Below, piece after piece: positions 7,365 through 59,236 of a stretch of 64,000 bases of DNA (positions within the stretch are counted from its first letter, which is position 1; each line of letters starts with the position of its first letter). Made by a program: the position numbers and the translations under genes. The DNA is from Octopus sinensis (lineage: Eukaryota): NCBI RefSeq assembly GCF_006345805.1, contig NC_043002.1, forward strand, positions 11,036,001-11,100,000, written 5' to 3'. The notes beneath the pieces are model-generated. The model was given only the letters and a program-made list of their open reading frames with translations. It did no database searches and was not told the DNA's origin.

Positions 7365-8172
7365 AAGGCGGCGAGCTGGCAGAATCGTTAGCACGCCGGG
7401 TGAAATCCGTAGCCGTATTTCGTCTGTCGTTACGTTCTGAGTTCAAATTCCGCCGAGGTCGACTTTGCCTTTCTTCATTTCGGGGTCGATGAATTAAGTA
7501 CCAGTTACGCACTGGGGTCGATATAATTGACTTACTCCGTTTGTCTGTCCTTGTTTGTCCTCTCTGTGTTTAGCCCCTTGTGGGTAGTAAAGAAATAGAA
7601 ATAGGTATGACGTCTGCCGCTACGTTCTGAATTCAAATTCCGCCGAGGTCGACTTTGCCTTTCATCATTTCGGGGTCGATAAATTAAGTACCAGTTACGC
7701 ACTGGGGTCGATATAATTGACTTAGTCCGTTTGTCTGTCCTTGTTTGTCCTCTCTGTGTTTAGCCCCTTGTGGGTAGTAAAGAAATAGAAATAGGTATTT
7801 CGTCTGCCGCTACGTTCTGAATTCAAATTCCGCCGAGGTCGACTTTGCCTTTCATCCTTTCGGGGTCGATAAATTAAGTACCAGTTACGCACTGGGGTCG
7901 ATGTAATCGACTTAATCTCTTTGTCCTTGTTTGTCCCCTCTATGTTTAGCCCCTTGTGGACAATAAAGAAGTAAGAAACGTTAGAACGCCGAGCGAAATG
8001 CTTAGCGGTATGTCGTCTGCCTTTACGTTCTGAGTTCAAATTCCGCTGAGGTTGACTTTGCCTTCCATCCTTCCGAGGTCGATAAATTAAGTACCAGTTG
8101 CATACTGGCTCGATCTAATCGACTGGACCCCTCCCACCAAATTTCGGGCCTTGTGCCTAGAGTAGAAAAGAA
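7365..8172 (+). mobile_element. Tandem array of four SINE-A units (three tail-1, terminal tail-2)
   Basis: Head AAGGCGGCGAGCTGGCAGAATCGTTAGCACG, ~185-bp repeating units, last unit ends GGCCTTGTGCCTAGAGTAGAAAAGAAT. Confidence 0.92.
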
Positions 8173-11659: not shown

Positions 11660-12212
11660 GAGCGAGAGAGCAGTGCATGCCATCACAGTGACACAGGGGT
11701 AAAACATACGAAGTCCAGTATACCCATCATGACTACCCGTCTGATAAGGGTACACCAGGCACATGCATCACAACCATATGTGCGCGACATGCTGATCTCA
11801 TATCAAGATAAACAGCGCATGACCTTGCAGGTGGGGCCCAGTTAGAATTTTCTTCTGGTCAAGTAGCCCATCCCGCTCAAAAGGTCCCTGAATAAGGATT
11901 GTTTAAAGATGTTGAACGAAACACTCATGTTCCCAAAGGTGAATTATCCAAACCTCTAAGAATTCCTTTCAACACACGACTATGATGCTCCTCCACTACT
12001 TCTGCTCGTGATCAGAGATGCACATACTCTCAGCCACTAAGGGACATGTTCAACTGGTTACGGTCAAACAACTGACAAGCAAATCTGTGGTATTGAGCAG
12101 AATATTTGCTGTAGCCCATCTTTTATACCAATACAAAACAATGTACATAATAACACTTCCAATCAGTTAAGATCAGAAGCCATGAGAGCCACTGCCTGGT
12201 ACTGGATCAGGG

Positions 12213-12213
<1 letters not shown>
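11660..12213 (-). mobile_element. Full-length ~555-bp TAA-associated non-coding element D
   Basis: Matches 48836-49391 end to end and 43470-43882 in reverse. (TAA)n on both sides. Confidence 0.88.
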
Positions 12214-12282
<69 letters not shown>

Positions 12283-12753
12283 TACTTTTAATCTGCACGT
12301 TTGTTACAATCACTTGCCGAGACACACTCAGCGACCTAGGGAGAGTGAAGGATAAGAAATGTTACAGAATGACTGAAAGCTTGGGGAGGGGAAGTGGCAA
12401 GAGCAGTAGCGAAATATCTTCATGTAATACGACACATACATTTAAATTGATAGGGTTTTCTAAGGATGTGGGCAGTACTTGTCAGCACAATCTTTCGGAT
12501 TTCTCTGAGACATAGTTCTCCTGGGATATTATCCATATGTTTCTGACATCCCTTCCTTATCATACCCAAGGTACCCACAATAACAGGAACAGTTCTCGCT
12601 TTAAGATGCCACATCTTTTGTATTTCAATTTCCAGGCCCTTATATTTACTTAGTTTGTCAAATTCCTTTACATCTATTATTCTACAAGTATTTTCTTTCC
12701 TATCTCTAATGACTATGTCTGGTCGATTAGCCTGGATCATTCTGTCGGTGTTG

Positions 12754-12980
12754 CTCCAAGTAAGTTCCGTGAAAATATTTCTTTACACCTGGATTGGTGT
12801 TGTTTTGCAATATTTATTTTATTCCAAGTTGTGAATAGAAACACCAGGAACCTGTTACTGGTTTTCTATGTTTGTTTAGCCCTTAGAGGGGCCACATTCG
12901 TCCCATCAAATAATTTTGGTGGACGTTTAATTTAATTGAATCAAATACTACACGACAAGATGGCGGAGCGCGTCTTGAAA
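12754..12980. mobile_element. 227-bp unclassified insertion inside the Dong RLE region
   Basis: Flanked by GTGTTG (12748-12753 and 12981-12986). Removing it restores WDFPVNTDRMIQANRPD. Confidence 0.7.
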
Positions 12981-15223
12981 GTGTTGACGGGAAAATCCCA
13001 GGGGATAGTGACGACCGGCTCAGGATGATGTTCGTACCAGTAAGCAGGAGTGTTGATCTTTTAGTATTTACATATTTTCCAATGTAAATACTGTTCTACC
13101 CTGTTGTGGCGATTTTTGTATTTGTTTGGTGTCAGCACAGGACATCCCGAGACAAGATGATCTACTGTTTCATCAAATGAACCGCATAAATCTGCATTTA
13201 GGGTCAAAACCGTTTTGAAGAACGTTAGCCTGGCAGTTGTTTGTGAGCAAGCTTTGATCTTGCGCCGCTAATATAAAACCTTGAGTTTTTGCTTTCAGTT
13301 TTGAGCTTCTCAGCCACTGATGGGTTGTGGCTTGGTTTACATTAGCATTGTGGCTTCGAAGTATATACAGTCCATGTAGAGGTTTCTGTCTCCACCGCTC
13401 CTCAATTTGTTTCTGCCCGTTCTTTCTTGTAGTCTGTTTCGTCCATTTTGATGGCTTGGTTTTAGGTTCTTCCTCTAATTCGGGGTTAATACCGAGTTCC
13501 CTTGCGAATTTGCAAGCTTCCTTGACAATATAATGTGATCTTTTGCGGCTTCCGTATTTGCACACAAGCCGCAGCATCCAGTCCTCTGTACTATATAAAT
13601 ACTTGTTTATTGCTAACGTGGGAGACTTATAGCACAGTTCAACCGCCTTCATTCCTTTTCCCCCATTACTTCTAGGTTGATACAGGCGATCAACATCTGC
13701 TCTTGGATGGTGCATGATCTTAGTTGTGAGTAGCTTTCTTCTTCCTGTCTAGACATTAGAATTCTGTGAGATTCTAGTTAATGATGTTAAAACTGTATTG
13801 GGCAGCTGGAAGTGCCAGGGTTTTAATGGCCTCGATGCGATTTTGGGAGTTGAGTTCAGTTTTTAGTATGAGTATGTAATACTCCTTGCTTATTTTTTCC
13901 TTCATAGTAGCATGTTGTATTCCATCTCCTTCGTTTATCCCCCGGTATTTGTAATTTTCTTGTGGGTCAAGCTCTTTGATGGTTATGTCGGTATCTAATT
14001 TAATGGAAGCTACTTGTTTGAGCTTGCCTCTTACAAAAGTTCCTTTAGCACACTTATCAAAACCAAAATCCATCCAAATGTCATTGCTTAACTCTTTAAC
14101 AGTTGTTAACAGCCCTACTAGCAAACAGCTTCAGATCGTCCATATAAAACAGATGGTTTTTAACCCATACCTGGTGTTACTCAGATCTTTTGAGAGTGGG
14201 ATCAGTGCCATGCAAAAGAGTAAGGGGGGAGTTACCTTCAAAGATGCCTCGTTCGATGTTGATGTTGTTAGATTGGCTCATCTCATTATTATGCTGTAGA
14301 AGGAGACGTGTATTCCACTTGGCCATGCAACCTTGTAAGAATTTGGAGACAACACAATCAAACACTTTCCTGTCGTCTGTCCATGCCATACTCAGGTTCT
14401 TTTTCCTCCGGCAATTCTCTACAATCATTTTATTTATGAGTAATTGATCGTTGCATCCATAAGTATTCTTTTTACAACCTTTTTGAGCTTGTGGAAGGAT
14501 AGAGTTCTGTTTCAGGAAAGCGTATATTCCTTCAGTTTGAATCGAAGTGAGGATCTTGTACGTGGTGTTGAGACATGTTGTTGGTCGGTAGTTCTTTGGA
14601 TTTTTCCTGTCTTAAATTTTTGGTAGAAGGTATGTTGTTGCTTTGGTCCACCAAGCAGGTATTTGCTCTGGGTTCTAGATGACATCAGTTAAGGATGCAG
14701 CAAAATTTTGCTGTACTTCTATCAAACAATTCAACCAGAGGTTAGGGATCTGGTCCAGTCGTGGGGGTTCTCCATTTGTGACACTTTCTAAGAACACATA
14801 TTAGCTCTTCTACTCCTATTGCCTCTCATTTCTCCTCTTCAACTTCATCCAGTCTCACTTTCTCACGTTTTATCCAGTCAGCTTCAACACTATACTCTTT
14901 TTGTTGCCCCATATCTTCTTCCACAACTCTTCCATTTCCTCAGCCTTAGGTGGCTTCTTTACTTCTATCTTACTTCTGTCTTACAATTTCGCTATAACAT
15001 TTCTTTACATAAGTTTTGAATACCTTGTTTTGTCGATAAAATTTGATTCTTTTGTCGTATTTTCTGAGCCGTTGGGCTTTCACTTGTATTCGTTATTTCA
15101 CAATTTCCTTGGTTACAGGGAGGTTTATAAAATCTTTGAATTTTATATTTTTGCTTGATTTTTCTAGCTTGTTTCTTCTTAACATTTACTCCTCTACCAA
15201 GTTCATCGAGAACTGATCTATTA

Positions 15224-15493
15224 TTTGAAATGTTTTTTCTAGTAGAACTGTTATATAAAATCTATTAAAAACCAACTCCTTCGAAGCTGGATCCAGGGAA
15301 TTCCTTGATTAATATCCCACGAAGTTTTCCTTCAATTGCACCGATGTTATCATTTATAAGCGTAGGAGTGGCTGTGTGGTAAGTAGTTTGCTTACCAGCC
15401 ACATGGTTCCGGGTTCAGTCCCAATGTGGCACGCCGTGGGACTGAACCCGGAACCATGTGATTGGTAAGCAAACTACTTACCACACAGCCACT
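15224..15493 (+). repeat. Chimeric local duplication (copy of 8975-9072 joined to copy of 17420-17595)
   Basis: Direct match to both donors, with 4-bp CACG microhomology at the junction (15318-15321). Confidence 0.9.
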
Positions 15494-16410: not shown

Positions 16411-17459
16411 TCCTAATTTGTTTAATTTCAGCCTCAGTTAACCTTTTATTCTTAATGATGTCTCAACATACATTATTTAGTTTATTTGCGCTTAAATATT
16501 TGCGTACTTCATTGCCTACTAAGTTTCTCCATGAAGTGTATGTTTGTACAATGAGGTGATTGTTTGGGTTCCGTTGGACTGTATAGAAAGCTTTCAACAC
16601 ATCTCTATAATCCTTTCTAGTCCATTTTATGCATTTTGGTTTAGGTTGTGGTTTTGCTGGTGTCCTTATAGGCCTAGGATTAGGCTTATCCTGGTTCTAG
16701 TTACCTAGTAGTTCGTTCTTTTTGTTGGGGTTTTTTTTTTTAGAGAGAGTTTGTTCCGGAAACAAACTTTTCGACCTCATTTTAGTTCCCCCCTGGGTAA
16801 CGTGGTCTTTATCCCAGGGGATGACCGATCCGGCATGAGCTTTGGTTTGTCATTAAAGCATTGAAGGTGACAATAGGAGGCGGGTCTGTTTGTTCAGAGT
16901 TGACCTTTTGACATGACACCTCTTCCTTGTTCTTCGAATTGATATATGTCTCATATCGTAGGCTGATAGATCGGAAATCGCCTCCATCTTTTTTTGGTAG
17001 CTATGTTTCCGGGTATAACTGTTTGCTGATGTTTTAAACTGAGTGACCAATTTGTTCCTTTTTATATTTGTTTGTGGGAAGTTGCTTTCTTTTATTTGAT
17101 TCGGCGTCGCTCGTGACACGTATTTTTCTTTTATTTTCTCTACGCGTACGTGTTTGTCGTGTAGGCATTATTTACGTTGCTTGTAAATATCAGCATGTGC
17201 ACATGGATGTGTGGACAGTTGCATGTATAGGTAATTATTCAATGTACAAACTTACTGTGTAATCGGTGTATTTTCCAGGGTTCGTGGTGCTGGTTTCGAA
17301 GTCTTGCGTATGTCACATGAGATATCGCGCGTTTAAGAAAGAAACTACGCTGTATCTAACAAAAATCTTTCCGATTTTTTTGCTCCTTTGCTTTAACAGA
17401 ACTTTTTCTACAGTTGTATCACGAAGTTTTCCTTCAATTGCACCGATGTTATCATTTAT

Positions 17460-18110
17460 AAGCGTAGGAGTGGCTGTGTGGTAAGTAGTTTGCTTACCAA
17501 CCACATGGTTCCGGGTTCAGTCCCAATGTGGCGCGCAGTGGGGCTGAACCCGGAACCATGTGGTTGGTAAGCAAACTACTTACCACACCGCCACTCCTAC
17601 GCCAATGAGTGTTGTCGGAGTTTCTACTATTCATGTGTACGTAAGAACAGTTTTAACATCTCTTAACTCTTTACTCTTTTACTCTTTTACTTGTTTCAGT
17701 CTTTTGACTGTGGCCACGCTGGAGCACCGCCTTTAGTCGAGCAAATCGACCTCAGGACTTATTCTTTGTAAGCCTAGTACTTATTCTATCGGCGTCTTCT
17801 ACTATAGCCTCGGGCTGACTAAAGCCTTGTGGATTTGGTAGACGAAAACTGAAAGAAGCTCGTCGTATATATGTATATATACATGTTTGTGTGTGTATAT
17901 GTTTATGTGTCTGTGTTTGTCCCCCAACATCGTTTGACAACCGATGCTGGTGTGCTTACGTCCCCGTAACTTAGCAGTTCAGAAAAGAGGCCGATAGAAT
18001 AAGTACTAGGCTTACAAAGAATAAGTCCTGGGGTCGATTTACTCGACTAAAGGTGGTGCTCCAGCATGGCCACAGTCAAAATGACTGAAACAAGTAAAAG
18101 AGTAAAAGTG
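17460..18110 (+). mobile_element. SINE-B carrying an internal inverted, templated insertion (17534-17792)
   Basis: Head at 17460-17533 resumes at 17793 (GTCTTCTACTATAGCC). Between them lie an inverted head and an inverted copy of 19745-19927. Confidence 0.85.
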
Positions 18111-20500: not shown

Positions 20501-20930
20501 AGATCTTTTCGGTTTGAACGGCAGTTTTTTCTAGCGGTGTCATATGAAATTGTCACCCATAATTATGACCCTAGTATCGATCTATTGCATTTCAATCTAT
20601 TTTAGGGTTAGGGTTAGTTTGGGTTAGTTAGGGTTAGGGGTGAGGGGAAGGGTACCTTTTATCGTCACAAATGTAAATAAACCCAATCTGTTTCTTAAAC
20701 GAGGGACATATTCATACGGCACAGAATGTTGTTTACCTCAATGGACGTCAGTGATTGGTTGAAATTGCAGAAATTGAAGAAAAAAAACAACAAATATCTT
20801 ACAAACTATAGAATTTTCTCAATAAAGCCAAGAGAAAAAGATGTTTTATAAACACATTCTACCAGTATACGAAGTTTTAAATTTTTTAGTTATCTAAAAA
20901 TTATGTTAAAAACTGCCGTTCAAACCGTTC
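20501..20930 (+). mobile_element. TTAGGG-carrying MITE (right TIR damaged)
   Basis: TIR GATCTTTTCGGTTTGAACGGCAG; TSD ACCTTTTG; TTAGGG-like tract at 20602-20640. Confidence 0.9.
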
Positions 20931-21274: not shown

Positions 21275-22242
21275 CGACGGGCTTCTTTCAGTTTCCGCCT
21301 ACCAAATCCACTCACAAAGTTTTGGTTGATCTGAGACTATAGTAGAAGACACTTGCTCAAGGTTCCACGCAGTGGGACTGAACCCGGAACCATGTGGTTG
21401 GGTGGTTGGTAAGCAAGCTACGTTATTTCAAAATTTTGCCATAAAGGCATTACAAAGAGTAGCTTGTGGGCTGGACAGAAACATTGATGAGATGAATGAT
21501 GAAAAAGGATGATATTGATGGGAGAAGACAAAAAACGCCCGCCGAATTTTTGCTTCTCTAATACATTATTCTTTTTTTTTTACATAGTAAACCTCTTACT
21601 TTAGTATGTAATGTTAAATTATTATTAGATTTTTTTTTTCATTCTTTTGCCTATGTTTATTTTATATGGCGACGTACCGTAAAAGATTGGCGACGTACCG
21701 TAAAAGAGGGAATACAAAGGAGTGACAGAGAGAGAGAGGAGAAATGGAAAGAAAGGAAGAGACGAAAACAAGAGACTATGGTACTACAACCAGCCAGGAA
21801 CAGTCTTCGCTACATTTGCGGTACCTGCCAGAGGAAGTGTTTGTCCAGGATAGGACTACACAGCCACAGCAGGAAACGTATCAAGACATGAAATATAAAA
21901 GCCGGACTAGACTACTTCATGCGCAACTCCATTGTCTCCCGAGACAGAAAGGATGCCAATACAATACCAATACTTTAGTATGTAAACCTCTCACTTTAGT
22001 TCTGTAGTTCGTTCTCAGTTGAGGCTTACAAACAATAAACACAAGACAAAACAACAGACTGAGGCATTAAACCTCCTACATTAATGTTAATACACAATAC
22101 GAGGCACTAAGCCTCTTAATTTTTCCGCCCCGCCGTCACCCGACCAGGCTTAATGCCACACTCAAGCACCTCGATGGTGCTAGGTCGGGACTTTTTGGCA
22201 AAAAGCGAAAAGCTACTTATCACACAGCCACTCCTGCGCTTA
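21040..22242 (-). mobile_element. SINE-B split in its head by a retroelement insertion
   Basis: Body at 21040-21422; remainder of the head (AGCTACTTATCACACAGCCACTCCTGCGC) at 22211-22240. Confidence 0.88.
21423..22210 (-). mobile_element. 5'-truncated ORF1-only L1/Tx1-like element inserted in SINE-B head
   Basis: 3' ~165 bp closely match 34755-34910. ORF end KSPDLAPSRCLSVALSLV resembles GPDLELEHCLREVYDLI of the 34-kb copy. Shared AGAGG..CCT hairpins. Confidence 0.75.
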
Positions 22243-22507: not shown

Positions 22508-22923
22508 GGATCTTTTCGGTTTGAACGGCAGATTTTAACATAATTTCTAAGTAACTAAAAAATTTTAAACTTCGTATACTGGTAGAATGTGTTTATAAAA
22601 CATCTTTTTCTCTTGACTTTATTGAGAAAATTCTATAGTTTCTAAGATATTTGTTGTTTTATTTCTTCAATTTCTGCAATTTCAACCAATCAGTGACATC
22701 TGTTGAGGTAAAAAGCATTCTGTGCCGTATGAATATGTCCCTCGTTTAAGAAACAGATTGGGTTTATTTACATTTGTGAAGAAAAAAGATACCCTTACCC
22801 CCACCCCTAACCCTAACCCTAAAATAGATTGAAATGCAATAGATCGATACTAGGGTCATAATTATGGGTGACAATTTCATATGACACCGCTAGAAAAGAC
22901 TGCCGTTCAAACCGAAAAGGTCC
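22508..22923 (-). mobile_element. TTAGGG-carrying MITE, intact
   Basis: GG...CC TIRs; perfect 8-bp TSD GTATTTTA (22500-22507 and 22924-22931). Confidence 0.95.
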
Positions 22924-24204: not shown

Positions 24205-24740
24205 TAAAGTCGCCGACCTGGCAGAAACGTTAGCACGCCGGGCGAAATACGTAGCCGTATTTCGTCTGCCGTTACGTTCTGAGTTCCGCCGAGGTCGACT
24301 TTGCCTTTCATCCTTTCGGGGTCGATAAATTCAGTACCAGTTACGCACTGGGGTCGATGTAATCGACTTAATCCGTTTGTCTGTCCTTGATTGTCCCCTC
24401 TGTGTTTAGCTCCTTTTGGGTAGTAAAGAAATAGGTATTTCGTCTGCCGCTACGTTCTGAGTTCAAATTCCGCCGAGGTCGACTTTGCCTTTCGTCCTTT
24501 CGGGGTCGATAAATTAAGTACCAGTTACGCACTGGGGTCGATATAATCGACTTAATCCGTTTGTCTGTCCTTGTTTGTTCTCTCTGTGTTTAGCCCCTTC
24601 TGGGTAGTAAAAAAATAGGTATTTCGTCTGTCTTTATGTTCTGAGTTCAAAATCCGCCGAGATCGACTTTGCCTTTTTATCCTTTCGGGGTCGATTAAAT
24701 AAGCACCAGTTACGCACTGGGGTCGATATAATCGACTTAA
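24205..24740 (+). mobile_element. SINE-A array (three units, last lacks tail)
   Basis: Repeated A units; the third ends at ATCGACTTA, directly before the Tx1-like element. Confidence 0.9.
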
Positions 24741-27142
24741 ATGTAAAATAAACTGTGAAATATTAAGTATGCCGACGGCAGAAAAATTTGTAGGGACGGC
24801 AAAAAAGATTAATTTTGCAGCTGCGGCTGGACTGAAAAAAAGAAAAATTATCTGTTGACAAAAATGTACTAATGCAGCACCAAACCATGTTTTCAAAGGA
24901 GGGATACGACGTAAAAGCCACCCTCCCGAGTGAAATTATAGAAGAAGCGGCAAAAAAAAAATAGCCGTATTTAAAACTCTTGTTGTAAAAGAAAATAATC
25001 TAGACAAAGCACCAAAAGAAGCTATAGAAAAATGCCTACAGCCGATCTGGCAGAACATAGAATACCTGACCAGAGGCAAATGCTTTGCCACGCTAGTAGT
25101 GTATTTCAAAAGTGAAGAGAAAGCGAAAATACATTCGGTACAACCTTTGAAAACCACGGATTTTGTATTGCTGCCAACATACTTTGGCAGGCGCACGTCA
25201 ATGATCACGGTAGAAGATATCCCGCCAGAAATGAACGTATCATGGCTATTCCCAGCCATACTAATGAGAATAATAGAAATAACGATATAAGAGACCTCAA
25301 AAATACCCCAGCAGAACTGGAAGGGGCAAGGCCTCGAGGTCATTATCCAAGCAGCGCCTCAGACCCTGAAAATGATCACAGAGAACATACACCTCGGAGA
25401 AGAAACCACCTTACGGGTAATGGTGGAGGGGAGAAGACCCCGGTGCTTCAAATGTAGAGAGAAAGGCCACATTCGGGCAAACTGTCCTACCCGTAAGGTG
25501 GAGACGGCTCAAAAAAAGAACGCAGAAGACCGACCAGTAGGCTCCCAGCAATGAAAACACTCAACTAGCTGGGAGTGAAGAAGGATGGTCTACGATAAAA
25601 AGGAAGAAATTAACCAAAAGGAAGAACCCCAATCCCATCCCTTCAACATCCAGCTCGAACAAGAAAAAAGCTCCCTCAACAGACACACACACGAAACTCA
25701 AACTACCCCAACCCACCACTATTCACCAAAAGAAACACCGATATCTCCTCCTTCCAACCCTGATAACCTCCCCTCCCCTCCCTCCCACTCAGCCCTGAAA
25801 TTTCACCCCTCCAATCCCCATCCTCCAGTCCCCGATCTCTCCCCCGTATATCCCCTCCGTCCGGCCCAGAAAAATCATCCCTCCAGTCCTGGAAAAAATA
25901 TATGGCAAAACAAGTTACTATTAGTGGCAATAAATGCCACGAACGAACAATTGACAACTAGAATTTAAAATATTCCTACAGCAGAAATCTTCAAAGGACA
26001 TTACACTAAACGGATCTTTTCGGTTTGACCGGCAGTTTTTTTTTAATAATTTCCACGTAACTAAACACTTTTAAACTTCGTATACTGGTAGAATGTGTTT
26101 ATAAAACATATTTTTCTCTTGGCTTTATTGAGAAAATTCTATAGTTTGTAAGATATTTGTTGGTTTTTTCTTCAATTTCTGCAATTTCAACCAATCAATG
26201 ACATCTATTGAGGTGAAAACATTCTGTGCCGTATGGATATGTCCCTCGTTTAAGAAACAGATTGGGCTTATTTACATTTCTGAAGAAAAAAATATACCCT
26301 TCCCCCCACCCCTAACCCTAACCCTAACTAACCCTAACTCTAACCCTAACCCTAAAACAGATTGAAATGCAATAGATCGATACTAGGGTCATAATTATGG
26401 GTGACAATTTCATATGACACCGATAGAAAAAACTGCCGTTCAAACCGAATAGATCCCGCTAAACTTCCAGAAGGAATTATGATAATACAAATAGACGACA
26501 TAAGCCTTGTAATATTAAAATCATATTTCCTCACAGACATAGGCTAGAGACACTATGGAGGGATTAGCATTAGCTAAGGACTTATGCCAAACAACTGTTG
26601 TCAAGTACAGGAAGAGTACAGCTATCGACTGAGTCAATAGTAAAAACTGACCCACCGGATTTCCTACCGAAAGAAGGTAAGAATTGCTTTCCCGTCATTG
26701 TAGCAATTGCGAAAGAGGTGATTTGGAAGACGCGAATGAAAGGGTTAATAACAGGCATTTTTATCTCTGGCCCTGGCTTGGTGAATTTCTTCACCTTCCA
26801 CCTAAGAAAGAAAATAGGGTTAGATAAAAAATGCCTGTCTGCGAAAATGTTCCAAGATCGATGGAAGAATGTCGCACGAATGTTGCGTATAGATGGAACC
26901 GAATGAATACAACGCAGGATGAACCCAAAGCATCAGTGTTGAGACGGGGTCTCGTGGTGTCCGAGCATATCCCGCCTCTCCACTCGATTCTGTATTGTTG
27001 TCTTGTATATGTTATCATTCGAACTATTCATATTTATGTAAAATTTTTAAATTCATCTTTTTGTTAACTCATACGATAAATCTGACCCCATATCAGATTG
27101 TACTGTCCTCTCTTTGTTCTCCCCTTGTGGGAAATAAAAAAT
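24741..27142 (+). mobile_element. Internally deleted L1/Tx1-like element: degenerate ORF1, ORF2 C-terminal remnant and 3' UTR
   Basis: ORF1 from ATG 24769, frameshifted: LPTYFGRR..VEDIPPE..VEGRRPRCFKCREKGHIRANC (CCHC knuckle). 26598-26906 has AKEVIWKTR..FQDRW, typical of L1/Tx1 ORF2 C-termini. No endonuclease or RT. Confidence 0.8.
26012..26456 (-). mobile_element. TTAGGG-carrying MITE nested in the Tx1-like element
   Basis: GGATC...GATCC TIRs; 8-bp TSD C(A/G)CTAAAC; (CCCTAA)n at 26311-26355. Confidence 0.95.
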
Positions 27143-27870
27143 TTGCGAAATGCTTATCGGTATTTCATCTGACTTTACGTTCTGAGTTCAAATTCCGCCG
27201 AGGTCGACTTTACTTTTCATCCTTTCGGGGTCGATTAAATATGTACCAGTTACGCACTGTGGACGATATAATCGACTTAATCCCTTTGTCTGTCCTTGTT
27301 TGTCCTCTCTGTGTTTAGCCCCTCGTGGGTAGTAAAGAAATAGGTATTTCGTTTGCCGTTACTTTGTGAGTTCAAATTCCGCCGAGGTCGACTTTGCCTT
27401 TCATCCTTTCGGGTTCGATAAATTAAGTACCAGTTACGCACTGGGGTCGATGTAATCGACTTAAAACCTGTGTCTCTCGTTAGTCCACTCTCTGTTTAGT
27501 CCCTTGTGGATAATAAAGAAATAGGTATTTCGTCTACCGTTACGTTCTGAGTTCAAATTCCGCCGAGGTCGACTTTGCCTTTCATCTTTTCGGGGTCGAT
27601 AGATTAAGTACCAGTTACACACTGGGGTCGATATAATTGACTTAATCCGTTTGTCTGTCCTTGTTAGTCCCCTCTGTGTTTAGCCCCTTGTGAGTAGTAA
27701 AGAAATAGGTATTTCGTCTGGTATTTCGTCTGCTGCTACGTTCTGAGTTCAAATTCCGCCTTTCATCTTTTCGGGGTCGATAAATTAAGTACCAGTTGCG
27801 TACTGGGATCGATATAATTGACTGGCCCCTTTCCTAAAATTTCGGGCTTTATTCCTAGAGTAGGAAATAA
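27143..27870 (+). mobile_element. SINE-A array (four units, terminal tail-2)
   Basis: Repeated A units starting at GCGAAATGCTT. Confidence 0.9.
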
Positions 27871-33857: not shown

Positions 33858-34998
33858 TAGGCGTAGGAGTGGCTGTGTGGTAAGTAGCGTGCTTATTTGT
33901 GCCTGGGCCACATTAAGAAAAACTGGGCCACATTAAGAAAAACTGTTCCCAGGACCAAGGTAAGGTCCTGGAGCAGTTAATAAAAGTAACGCTTATTTGT
34001 GCCTGGGCCACATTAAGAAAAACTGTTCCCAGGACCAAGGTAAGGTCCTGGAGCAGTTAATAAAAGTAACGCCCCGCTCCCCCATTGGAGGGAGAGATGG
34101 AGGCAGTCGAGGAGGTGGAGATCTCTTCGAAAAAAGGAAAGAAAAGAAAGAAGGTGGTCAACAATGGTTGCCCACCGAACGACCCTAAAGCAGCAGGAGG
34201 GGAGGAAGATCCTCCGAATAAAGCGGAGGTACCACACCCTCCCGTAGCAAAGGGGAGAAAAAGAAAAAAGAAAAAGAACGGGACATTACCGGCATGCCCT
34301 GAAACTTTGTCGGTGCGAGGTGTGCCACCGACAGAGAAAACTGTGGCCCCTCCCAGAGCGACGAGAGATGATTTTGTTATCTTCTTCCATAAGGGAGGGG
34401 CAATACAGAGCTTCTTAAGGAAGCTAGAGAGTCGGAGGGAGGAGCCCATGCCCTGAACTGAAGACCCGGATTGGCCTCCGCACGTGACTACGGAGGTCAG
34501 ATCGGAAATTGATATGTTCAGGGTGGTTGACTCCTTCCCGTAGGACCTGTTTAGGTTCGACTTCTGGGGCCCCGATCTGGAGCTGGAGCATTGCCTACGG
34601 GAGGTATACGACCTGATCAGGGAGGAAGGATAAAGAGGCTTTAGTGCCTGAATGTTTATTGTATGTAAGAGGCTCAGCGCCTCAATTTGTTATGGACTTT
34701 TAATTGTAAGAACTGAAGTAAGAGGTTTAATACCTCGTTTTTTTTTTCCTGTATAAAAAAAGAATAACGTATTAGAGAAGCAAAAATTCGGCGGGCGTTT
34801 TTTGTCTTCTCCCATCAACATCATCCTTTTTCATTATTCATCTCATCAATGTTTTTTGTCCAGCCCACAAGCTACTCTGTGTTATGCCTTTATGGCAAAA
34901 TTTTGAAATAAAGTAGCTTGCTTACCAACTACATTGTTCTAGGTTCAGTTCCACTGCGTGGCACCTTGGGCAAGTGTCTTCTACTATAGCCTCGGGCT
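33858..34998 (+). mobile_element. SINE-B (3'-truncated) split in its head by a retroelement insertion
   Basis: Head at 33858-33895 resumes at 34911. TSD AAGTAGC(G/T)TGCTTA. Confidence 0.88.
33896..34910 (+). mobile_element. 5'-truncated ORF1-only L1/Tx1-like element inserted in SINE-B head
   Basis: Knuckle remnant CLGHIKKNC, basic linker, ORF end at ~34633, ~280-bp 3' UTR, no RT. Internal tandem duplication at 33891-34072. Confidence 0.78.
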
Positions 34999-53744: not shown

Positions 53745-54205
53745 ATGACGGCGAGATGGTAGGATCGTTATGCTTAGCAGTATTTCGTCTGCCGTTACGC
53801 TCTGAGTTCAAATTCCGCCGAGGTCGACTTTGCCTTTCATCCTTTCGGGGTCGATAAATTAAGTACTATTTACGCATTGGGCTCGATGTAATCGACTTAA
53901 TACCTTTTGTCTGTCCTTGTTTGTCTTGTCTGTGTTTAGCCCCTTGTGGGTAGTAAAGAAATAGGTATTTCGTCTGCCGCTACGTTCTGAGTTCAAATTC
54001 CGCCGAGGTCGACTTTGCCTTTCATCCTTTCGGGGTCGATTAAATAAGTACCAGTTACGCACTGGGGTCGATATAATCGACTTAATCCGTTTGTCTGTCC
54101 TTGTTTGTCCTCTCTGGTTTTAGCCCCTTGTGGGTAGTAAAGAAATAGGTATTTTGTCTGCCGCTACGTTCTGAGTTCAAATTCCACCGAGGTTGACTTC
54201 CCCTT
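53745..54205 (+). mobile_element. SINE-A array
   Basis: Two full units plus one partial unit. Confidence 0.88.
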
Positions 54206-55622: not shown

Positions 55623-55704
55623 CATATATGTATATATATGTACATATTATATATATGTACATATATATACATATATATATATATGTACATATATATACAT
55701 ATAC

Positions 55705-58700
55705 ACCTTTCACAACTCATACACACACACGCACCTACACACCCACTCGAAACCCCATCATTTGCCGATGTTCTCTTCGCCATAGACTGTGCACTGATAG
55801 AGACTGTAAATTCACCCATTTACCTGGAACAAAACGCTCTATCCCCACAAACTACAACACCACCACAACCACCAATATCTCAAACAAGGAATCCCCAAAT
55901 CTGCCGCTATTCCCAGCGAGACAGATTGTGTTTGCACAGGGATTGCCCCTTTACCCATCTCCCGGGGACTCGCCGGACATTTAAAGATAACCACTCATAT
56001 AAAAATAACCACAACCACAGTCACCTACAGTTCCCTAGACAGGAAACCACCTCTTTTTTAGCTATAATGAATCTAGCAAAAGAACTGGAAAAAAACATCT
56101 GAGCTATCACCCACCACCATCCACCACTATTACCCCACTGCACATGCCATTAAAAAGCAATCAATAAACAAACAATCACCAAAACAATTAAAAAACCATC
56201 CACTCTCGCCTCAACATTTTTGCTTAACGCCCAAGGCATCAGCCCTTCCACAATACACAAAAATGGAAGATAAGATTCCTGGAGGACTGGGTCGAGGCCC
56301 ATCCAAACCACATCCCTTTCTTCGTCCTCACTGAAACCCATCTTAGTGACCTCCACTTGGAAGCCGAGGGGAAAGTTAAAAATTTCAAAACCATTCGTGC
56401 TGATCGTGCTGGCAGAAGAAAGGGTGGGACTGCCATTTATGTCCATGATTCGTTCTCAACAGAAGCCATGAACATATTCCAATGGATACTGCGAAGCAGT
56501 CGCTGTATTCAGTCAAACCAACAACTTAACAGTAGTGGGCTCTACAGACCACCCCAAACGCCCCTACCATGCTTCAAGAATGCCTCAACAGCATAAAGTG
56601 GTTCATTCAGCAGTGTCAACCTGACAACATTTTAATGATGGGAGACTTCAACCTTCCCGGGGTTGACTGGTCTACAAACAGTCTGCCGCCAGGTTCTCTC
56701 TCTCAACCCCTGACAGAGAGGCAGTGGAATCGCTTCTTGACTTCATGGATGATTTCTTCCTGTCCCAACTGGTACTCGAACCAACGAGATGTCACAAAAA
56801 CGTCTTAGACTTAATTTTCAGCAATCACACTGATACTATCCACAATATTACAGTGGAGAAAACCCTACTCTCCGACTATGACATGGTTCTCTGTGATCTG
56901 AGATTTCACTGGCCAAAATGCAAAACAAATGTCATCCCTCCTGTTCATCCATTTGACACCATGGATTTCCACAATGCAAACTGGGAAGCGATCAATAATG
57001 ATCTTGCACAAGTCGATTGGTCCTTCACGCACACTACACACCACTAACATCAAAAAGTCCTGGCAGTCACTTGTAGACACCATCACGAACATATGTGCAA
57101 GACACACCCCATTAAGATCTGCAAACAAATCTAAGTGTCGAATCCCTAAAAATAGAAAATCTCTCATAAGAAAATTAAAAGAATTAACAAAAAGATCAAC
57201 ATGCTGAAATACTGTCAACAGCAACACACCAACCTGACTGCCATTTCGTCGCTAGAGATTAAAAAACATAAACTCCAAAACAACATGATGTCTAACATCA
57301 ATAGTCAGCGAAGAGCTGAAGAGGCCTGGGCCATTGAGAAGATCAAACTCAATCCCAAAGTGTTCTTTTCATTTGCAAAAAAACACAGAGTCACTGGTTC
57401 TACTGTTGGCCCTCTGATTGATGAAAATGGTACTCTTCAAGACAATGGGAGAGATATGCCAAAACCATGGGAGAGATATTGCAGAAACAATATTGCTCTG
57501 TTTTCAGCAGTCCTGATATGACTGATCTGGGCTGTATCAGTGATGTTACTCCCCAATACACTTTATAGGACATAACATTTGGCGCTCCTGATGTCTTAGC
57601 AGCAATAAAGGAAATGAAGCATAATTCAGCAGTAGGTCCCGATAGGTTCCCTGCTTGTGTCTTGAAGATGTGTCAAAACCAACTTGCACCCCTCTAGCCA
57701 ATCTGTGGCGGAACTCACTGGATGCTGGATATATACCAGAAGACCTTCTATCCCAGTCTGTCGTCCCAGTTTTCAAAAAAGGAAACAAATCGCTTGCCGT
57801 GAATTACCGTCCAATCTCACTCACCTCTCATATCATCAAGGTATTGAGAGGGTGCTGAGATCGCGTATGACTCACTTCCTTGAGAGTCATAATATGCTGA
57901 ACCCCAACCAGCATGGATTCCGTAATGGGAGAGATTGCCTGACGCAGCTACTGCATCATTTTGATGACATTTTGAGAGCCTTGGGAGAAGGTTCCAACAC
58001 TGATGTCATCTACCTTGATTTCAGCAAGGCCTTTGACAGGGTTGATCATAAGATCCTTCTGAGAAAGCTGTCCAATATTGGTGTCACTGGAAAGCTGCTG
58101 CAGTGGATCAAGTGCTTCCTGTCTAACAGAACCCAACATGTTGTAGTCGAAGGAGTCAAATCCAGCCCAGCCAAAGTCAGCAGTGGTGTCCCACAAGGCA
58201 CTGTGTTGGGCCACTTCTCTTCATCATCTACATAAATGATATTACTGACACCATCAAACACAGTAACATCAGAACCTTCGCTGATGATTCCAAGCTCCAG
58301 AAGGTCATCAATGGCGTGGATGACCGAATAAACCTTCAGTCAGACCTACTGGCTGTTGTCCAATGGGCGGAAAAGAATAACATGTTGCTAAATGAAGACA
58401 AATTCGAACTGATCCACTTTGGAAGGGAGGACGCTCTGAAACTCCCATACTCTCTTCCTTCTGGAGAAATTCTCATGGCATCCAACAACATCAGAGACTT
58501 GGGAGTAACAGTGGACAACAACATAAGCTGGGCTACACATATAAGCAGCAAAGTTGATATGGCCCGCAGAATGTGTTCCTGGATTCCCAGAACCTTCCAG
58601 TCGAGAGATTCCCACGCTATTATCCTTCTCTTCTCCACTTTTGCCCGACCCCGCCTTGAATACTGCTGTCCACTGTGGTCTCCCTACACAAAACAAAATA

Positions 58701-59236
58701 TTATGAGAATTGAAGCTCCCCAAAGGTCAATCACAAAAAAGATAGATGGCATGTCAGACCTTGACTACTGGGGTAGACTAGAGAAGCTGAAACTGTATTC
58801 ACTCCAACGACGCCGTGAACGCTACATTATCTGTATGACGTAGAAAATATTCCATCAGCACTGTCCGAATGATGTTGGCTTCACCTTCAAAATACATCCA
58901 AGGCTTGGACCACGTGCCATCCGTCCACAACAAAAATCTAAATCGCATCACATAACGACAATACGGCACAACTATTTCACCTCAATTGGACCCGCTCTCT
59001 TCAACATTACACCAGGACACGTCAAAAAAGAAACTGACCACACAAAATTCAAGAAGTCTTTGGACAAATTCCTTCAAACAGTCCCGGACAAACCACCCAC
59101 ACCCGGATATGTCTCCGCAAGCAATAACTCTCTGCTCGAATGGGCCTTGGTGCCCAAAAGAAGTTGAAAGACTTCGCCAGGTGGTGCTATTAAGTTAGAC
59201 ATGCCTGGGCCAATACTGGCCAAAACCTTTCTAAGT
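55705..59236 (+). mobile_element. CR1-clade LINE with near-complete but frameshifted ORF2 (APE endonuclease + RT) and ORF1 C-terminal part
   Basis: APE motifs LTETHL, GGTAIYV, YRPP, MGDFNLP, PTR..VLDLIF. RT motifs NYRPISLTS, QHGFR, LDFSKAFD, SGVPQGTVLG, FADD, RDLGV, PRLEYCCPLWSP. Long (TA)n on both sides. Confidence 0.93.

Follow-up and report, generated by a model that had tools for sequence, protein, structure and literature searches.

The window, by which we mean the whole 64,000-nt stretch of Octopus sinensis DNA analysed here, contains two copies of a LINE-type element, each of which interrupts a different copy of one SINE; the insertion point is the same base in both, directly following the A-box-like TGGCTGTGTGGT. 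Copy 1 (33896..34910, + strand) is 5'-truncated and consists of an ORF1 remnant that runs directly into the 3' UTR, without ORF2 and without poly(A); it separates the 5' half of a tRNA-like SINE head, with its A-box-like part (33860..33895, +), from the 3' half of the same SINE (34911..34997, +), which is truncated downstream. Copy 2 (21424..22209, − strand) lies in another SINE copy and has its last 156 nt in common with copy 1, the two differing at 7 of these 156 tail columns; homology in the UTR hairpins is also present and is weaker than in the last 156 nt. No tRNA was called in the SINE head by ARAGORN or Rfam, and its tRNA origin is read from motifs. The target-site duplication of copy 1 is 14 nt long, with one mismatch between its 5' copy (33882..33895, +), whose last 4-5 nt may be microhomology, and its 3' copy AAGTAGCTTGCTTA (34911..34924, +), which forms the start of the downstream SINE half; that of copy 2 is 9 nt long, again with one mismatch (3' copy 21415..21423, −; 5' copy 22210-22218). 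Neither 3' junction carries poly(A), and with target-site duplications, the same 3' end and differing 5' starts the two copies bear the marks of TPRT inserts. A composite element that carries the SINE half along was ruled out, since each copy has a SINE 5' half of its own, the flanks are not the same, and the duplications differ in length.

The element is site-specific in the SINE head. Both window copies occupy one base of this multicopy repeat, and among the 13 young SINE heads in the window (a count that excludes three older heads) 11 are intact and two are interrupted, both at that base. Tail-target junctions were also found in contigs from all of four runs drawn from a list of 24 (X1, X4, X9 and X11, a single run per organism for A, C, D and E, with 1436, 1059, 859 and 627 contigs aligned, respectively), and a variant tail is joined to the same SINE site in 16, 11 and 13 contigs of three runs. 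Off-target copies appear to exist as well: three of the 32 contig pieces listed stop at 34911-34912 and continue with about 560 nt of unlike sequence, and two of these may be one locus.

The coding part of copy 1 (33896..34633, +) is a broken C-terminal portion of ORF1, from the zinc knuckle on, with two in-frame stops and a tandem duplication of about 80 nt at its 5' end; this duplication, at the 5' junction of the copy (33894-34074), contains an inner 19-nt repeat, and template jumping is likely there. The remnant is 81% identical over 57 aa to XP_029652367 (O. sinensis LOC115225585; tblastn E=1e-22), which was the one true relative returned by protein searches with ORF1; three weak protein matches (E 7e-5 to 3e-4, 29-38% identity) were dropped, the query being low-complexity. 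In the ORF1 homologue, P0003, zf-CCHC scored below the cutoff (E=0.058), the Atlas neighbours were zf-CCHC, RRM and ZCCHC3-RBD at 0.90-0.93, and the single-sequence fold was unusable (pLDDT 38), with no solved relative found. Queries with ORF1 gave no related loci, and DNA scans with the tail and junction gave 0 loci in metagenome, prokaryote-genome and viral collections. Neither copy holds ORF2, and no longer homologue was found. Since ORF1 runs directly into the 3' UTR and contigs of four of four runs cross the junction between the ORF1 stop and the UTR, the element is likely to represent an ORF1-only non-autonomous family. Judged from its site specificity, duplication length and ORF1 type, it likely belongs to the Tx1/L1 group, and a link between ZCCHC3 and the Tx1 clade is presumed, for which the literature search found no paper. 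The ORF1 is LINE-type, combining an RRM with a CCHC knuckle, which corresponds to type I in the accessible text of PMC4120745; the same text reports such ORF1s in many clades. L1-Tx1 families have been recently active in O. vulgaris, according to the available part of PMC13282606 (Table 1).

The surroundings of copy 2 form a nest of DNA transposon, SINE and LINE, in which 301-nt inverted arms (20627-20927 and 22517-22817, 94%) enclose the SINE that holds the copy; a shorter relative (25995-26460) interrupts a third element (24771-27136). The middle part of copy 2 (21620-21980, −) matches nothing in copy 1 or in the rest of the window and is flanked by the repeated motif ACTAAAGT(A/G)AGAGGTTTAC. 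Both 3' UTRs contain repeated short hairpins of the form GAGG(C/T)-5 nt-(G/A)CCTC with stem and loop variants (34636-34737 and 22115-22060, −), and that of copy 1 also contains a long hairpin, GAGAAG...CTTCTC (34775..34811, +).

Near its 3' end the element carries a short copy of its own target in antisense orientation. The sequence-only reading had pointed out that CAAGCTACT (34868-34876, +) is the exact reverse complement of AGTAGCTTG (34912-34920), the target just after the insertion point, and had placed it about 35 nt before the end of the element; a check of the sequence agrees on both counts, with 34 nt counted between the motif and the end at 34910. It had also remarked that the 9-mer is intact in the other copy. 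The 9-mer is indeed present there (21458..21466, −), but its preservation carries no weight, because with differences at just 7 of 156 tail columns any 9-mer would be intact with P=0.66; the downstream target of copy 2 is moreover CGTAGCTTG, which leaves a complement of 8 nt. With the base G at 34867, which is the majority base of the family, the motif becomes GCAAGCTACT, a 10-nt complement of 34912-34921 that covers bases 2-11 of the duplicated interval. The 3' copy of the duplication (34911..34924) in turn belongs to a quasi-palindrome, GGTAAGTAGCTTGCTTACC, in which 14 of 19 bases are self-complementary. Outside the element tails the exact 9-mer occurs eight times in the window, seven of them in SINE heads. 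The tail thus has the kind of segment expected of a guide, 9-10 nt complementary to the target where it is cut and spanning the duplicated interval.

The probability of such a match arising by chance was estimated by dinucleotide shuffling, with 20,000 shuffles per setting. A reverse complement of at least 9 nt to the 14-nt duplicated site arose with p=0.0012 in the last 60 nt and p=0.003 in the 155-nt tail, and in the loosest setting, in which the 276-nt UTR was compared with the 80-nt SINE head in either orientation, a 9-nt match had p=0.068; for a 10-nt match p ranged from 0.00025 to 0.018. The earlier caution that chance was not excluded is borne out: with the breadth of the search, the chance value varies from 0.1 to 7% for a 9-nt match and from 0.03 to 1.8% for a 10-nt one. 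Empirical rates, taken over about 54,000 non-low-complexity window positions per strand, were 0.4% (60 nt) and 0.9% (157 nt) per position for 9 nt, and 0.17% (60 nt) and 0.42% (157 nt) for 10 nt. When the tail was compared with all 365 fourteen-nt windows of a full SINE copy, matches of at least 8 nt were confined to eight overlapping windows at the target, and the copy 1 UTR had no match of at least 7 nt to the head of the other SINE, SINE-A. The match between motif and target is unusual, yet not beyond chance for a scan of many windows.

The contigs of the four runs allowed the tail to be followed across family members. G at 34867 made up 0.76 (X1), 0.76 (X4), 0.72 (X9) and 0.15 (X11) of the summed contig depth and was carried by 31, 33, 25 and 1 contigs, and because it is the majority base in three of the four organisms the complement extends to 10 nt; both window copies have A at this position, and because the site is a CpG this A may be decay or a subfamily mark. 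Among the 40 of 129 variant rows listed, none falls within 34868-34882, with variation at 34867, 34883 and 34884 on either side, and none falls in the target, so that no compensatory change of motif and target was seen. Stronger conservation of the 9-mer than of its neighbours does not emerge from these data, in which its conservation does not exceed background: on the same 40 of 129 rows, 67 of 148 nine-nt and 24 of 142 fifteen-nt tail windows are equally clean. In two runs a deletion of one base at 34869 rises to 6.5% and 5.6%, a few single-locus contigs have no motif region, and three loose-end consensuses, which are noisy (agreement 0.58-0.65), read T at the place of 34875, a change that, if real, would form a wobble pair. 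Inside the element, upstream of the junction, contig depth peaks on the long hairpin at 34775-34811 and not on the motif in X1, X4 and X9, and does not do so in X11.

A comparison with homologous tails was made possible by SINE-A and by the third element (24771..27136, +), a distant relative that serves as a control outside the family, whose ORF1 is 27% identical to XP_029652367 (tblastn E=7e-14; zf-CCHC E=4e-5) and which keeps a C-terminal remnant of ORF2. The studied element, the third element and SINE-A have a common tail layout of TGTCC, a slot, CTCTGTGTT, a hairpin and GAAATA, and the slot is wholly different, reading AGCCC(A/G)CAAGCTA in the studied family and TTGTTTGTCC in SINE-A. Because the slot differs in the homologous tail family, the complement is family-specific, save for its last two bases, which are part of a CTCT block common to the second tail family. 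The terminal hairpin TGCC-TTTAT-GGCA (34885..34897, +) is kept in that family with compensatory changes: all cells (100%) are paired and two of the four pairs are changed on both sides, a score reached by 16 of 500 shuffles and based on four distinct rows. Of 22 matches to the tail pattern, two were the studied copies, one was unrelated and was dropped, and 19 were SINE-A tails; 18 of these 19 have a complement of at most 6 nt to their own downstream flank, and one has 8 nt, at the very end. The SINE-A tail family joins several sites and may therefore not be a strict test, and its slot does not complement its own flank. The third element likewise shows no complement of its own flank near the end, just an A/T 8-mer far upstream.

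The third element is L1/Tx1-like, is preceded by a SINE-A body without tail, and ends in a tail homologous to that of SINE-A, with SINE-A head sequence after it; SINE-A probably has this element as its partner LINE and may itself have arisen from a SINE-headed LINE by internal deletion. SINE-A also forms arrays (for example 24250-24740, 27140-27720, 7370-7800 and 53780-54150) of tandem units of about 184 nt, which mostly restart at GGTATTTCG in the head; the tail end GAAATA of the unit is complementary to TATTTC, giving short inverted ends that may underlie array formation, and other SINE-A junctions lie at AGAAACGTT (about 8.0 kb and 47.2 kb). The studied tail is absent from the other degraded LINEs in the window (55.7-59.2 kb and 12.2-15.2 kb). 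One of these (55700-59230, +) retains endonuclease and RT remnants (Pfam Exo_endo_phos_2, RVT_1) and is, judged by its motifs, CR1/L2-like, and the other (12200-15200, −), with an RT remnant and an AAT-repeat tail, we presume on the same basis to be R4/Dong-like. By eye, no complement of at least 7 nt was seen in the last 70 nt of eight Utopia families, in the sequences available from PMC4640811. An antisense-to-target motif in the tail is not a general rule.

The reading that we tentatively favour is that, in the element RNA, the tail motif folds back on the target sequence gained by read-through and is later exchanged for the DNA primer. An AATAAA poly(A) signal (34907..34912, +), the only such hexamer in 34620-34920, straddles the element end and the target, and for this reason transcripts likely include the target. 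Poly(A) cleavage falls some 10-30 nt downstream of AATAAA, and the absence of copied poly(A) at the junctions fits cleavage beyond the target. The sequence-only reading had already suggested a fold-back on read-through sequence, and folding gives that suggestion substance, the core pairs having a predicted probability of about 1.0 with at least 30 nt of read-through; the read-through itself is something we infer, as RNA ends are not visible in contigs. Pairing with the read-through is predicted at 0.74-1.0 per pair, and the two 65-nt junctions gave z=-3.0 and -2.4. An Rfam search at the junction returned wcaG as its only match, at 20.9 bits against a cutoff of 42, and a hammerhead at the junction was rejected, there being no third stem between GAAA and the outer stem.

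In such a mechanism the endonuclease of an autonomous partner, absent from the window, would choose the quasi-palindromic site, and poly(A) cleavage past AATAAA would keep the target in the RNA, with reverse transcription starting internally at the junction, as with read-through R1/R2 RNAs. The motif and the read-through would close a stem around the terminal hairpin, placing the first templated base at the foot of the 3' arm. Having the sequence of the bottom-strand primer, the motif would act as a placeholder in a stem that would mimic the primer-template duplex; the primer would then displace the motif, and the freed motif could hold the displaced top strand. On-target donor copies alone would form the stem, and the propagation of such copies would be favoured. 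Each functional step here is one that we infer, and the computed energetics of the exchange are unfavourable without protein: by nearest-neighbour estimates, releasing the read-through from its stem would take about 9.6 kcal/mol, and the net cost of exchanging the four strands is about 5 kcal/mol, so that the stem could also hinder priming. Precedents for individual elements of the scheme exist in the accessible portions of earlier reports: R2Ol is more efficient when its read-through can pair with the target DNA (PMC6530143), such pairing is also stated for R1Bm (PMC7265360), SART1 has target-like sequence in its UTR that is proposed to anneal (PMC6530143, PMC7265360), and in R2Bm the template is positioned by a 3'-terminal stem (PMC11194090). 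The observation itself has been somewhat strengthened, in that the match grew by a tenth base, sits on the duplicated interval and fills a family-specific slot.

Coincidence is about as likely as a functional fold-back. The motif would then be ordinary sequence in a conserved LINE tail, possibly part of a weak, protein-bound internal hairpin, with the endonuclease alone picking the target. The chance values, 0.1-7% for a 9-nt match and no more than 1.8% for a 10-nt one, have to be set among the very many windows scanned; the empirical 9-nt rate is 0.4-0.9% per position, and motif conservation is at background level. The element alone also contains a hairpin, CACA-AGCTACTC-TGTG; it tolerates A or G at 34867, both of which pair with 34880, so that the A/G change fits this hairpin too. 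The presence of the last two motif bases within the CTCT block of the second tail family, and the lack of such a motif in SINE-A tails, in the third element and in the eight Utopia families, point the same way, as does the view, in the accessible text of PMC4494074, that target choice lies mainly with the endonuclease. Coincidence has more difficulty with the independent contig data, which lengthened the match to 10 nt, with the fact that this is the single best match of the tail to the whole SINE and falls on the duplicated interval, and with the location of the motif in a family-specific slot.

Against these two readings, it seems unlikely that the motif is a functionless relic of an ancestor that captured an inverted piece of the target, either by a fold-back template switch or by insertion in reverse into the quasi-palindromic site and subsequent 3' capture. 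The self-complementarity of the target (14 of 19 bases) and the family-specific slot would suit such an origin, and fold-back pairs of the target SINE head do occur twice in the window (15355-15493 and 17457-17603), as two similar head-to-head pairs in which all four heads carry the variant AGTAGTTTG, possibly as a small palindromic family. The match, however, does not go beyond 10 nt, the sequence to its left and right bearing no resemblance to inverted SINE, and it shows no common substitutions in the four organisms among the 40 of 129 variant rows listed, which is not what a relic leads one to expect.

A guide acting in trans, in which the motif itself would find the site by base-pairing to the top strand of the DNA and no read-through would be involved, we hold to be quite improbable, and the guide-like recognition of the displaced strand raised by the sequence-only reading has lost ground accordingly. 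The motif does span bases 2-11 of the duplicated interval, its core is mostly unpaired in the element-only RNA (predicted P 0.79-0.88 at four positions), and the seven SINE heads among eight exact 9-mers outside element tails suggest that 9-10 nt would be fairly selective. Strand invasion, however, is predicted to be energetically neutral at best (+0.3 to +0.8 kcal/mol), the motif would be occupied because read-through is likely, some copies appear off target, no strand-change joints lie at the motif among the 15 of 23 joints listed, no such case was found in the literature searched, and the endonuclease mainly chooses the target in the account available from PMC4494074. Guidance by RNA only is unlikely. 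The pairing of the motif with SINE RNA, for co-localisation or for hitching on SINE transcription, is the least likely of the options raised and barely credible, for despite a predicted duplex of -11.6 kcal/mol (9 nt) or -15.0 kcal/mol (10 nt) and the abundance of SINEs in octopus (PMC13282606, in its accessible part), the target segment is predicted to lie in its own hairpin in one of the two intact heads folded and to be paired elsewhere in the other, and such pairing does not account for a match that falls exactly on the duplicated interval.

In the literature searched, which included few subscription papers and did not extend to Repbase, we found neither an account of the target of this family nor a LINE tail described as carrying an antisense target motif. 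The choice of site by LINEs is attributed for the most part to the endonuclease, RNA contributing only through sense pairing with the primer, and a selected antisense target motif in a LINE tail would, if true, surprise specialists, as it would add an RNA check on the target and explain how on-target donor copies alone stay productive. In its most far-reaching form the proposal would be that the RNA of a eukaryotic LINE serves to read the DNA target of the element, the sense read-through and the antisense 3' UTR copies of the 10-nt target swapping onto both strands at the nick, in a manner that may be likened to group II intron EBS pairing or to a bridge RNA. We give little credence to this form; were it true, changing ten tail bases would shift or gate the insertion site, which would make it possible to tune site-specific gene insertion by LINE proteins through a short handle. 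If the match is a coincidence, what remains is a new target, the SINE head, for a known habit.

In group II introns, through EBS/IBS and delta pairings, and in the IS110 bridge RNA, the element RNA carries the complement of its own flank or target. The octopus motif, if functional, would work like the EBS/IBS or bridge RNA pairing, in an element that differs from both systems in having no ribozyme or recombinase and a single segment of 9-10 nt of putative function. HAL1-type elements are ORF1-only non-autonomous elements. Copy 1 resembles them (the name is used in the accessible text of PMC5753468) in that ORF1 runs directly into the 3' UTR, and differs in its RRM plus CCHC ORF1 and its site-specific insertion. 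As far as the available text of PMC4494074 goes, Tx1 in Tx1D, Tx1-Mar with SINEU-3 in Mariner-N4_AMi, and Keno in U2 each use one site of a multicopy repeat, as the octopus element does, and Tx1-clade elements likewise make duplications of about 10-16 nt and have non-autonomous passengers; Tx1 elements that target other transposons are known from that text, and SINE targeting is an ordinary extension. The octopus element differs from these systems in that its target is a tRNA-like SINE head, in that SINEU has poly(A) at the junction whereas the octopus element has none, and in its target complement, which the portions of PMC4494074 available to us do not mention for Tx1-clade tails. In R2Ol (r4/r10), R1Bm and SART1 (GGUU/AGG), the point at which reverse transcription starts is fixed by RNA-DNA pairing at the 3' junction (PMC6530143 and PMC7265360, in their accessible parts), and since no poly(A) is copied such junction pairing is likely in the octopus element too. 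The pairing sequences described there are sense to the top strand, in contrast to the octopus motif, which is antisense, has the sequence of the primer strand and sits 34 nt in from the element end. Finally, the terminal hairpin at 34885-34897 resembles the 3'-terminal stem-loops of stringent LINE/SINE tails and of the R2Bm 3' RNA, as these appear in the accessible text of PMC3747384 and PMC11194090, whereas the proposed outer stem, unlike those stems, needs sequence outside the element.
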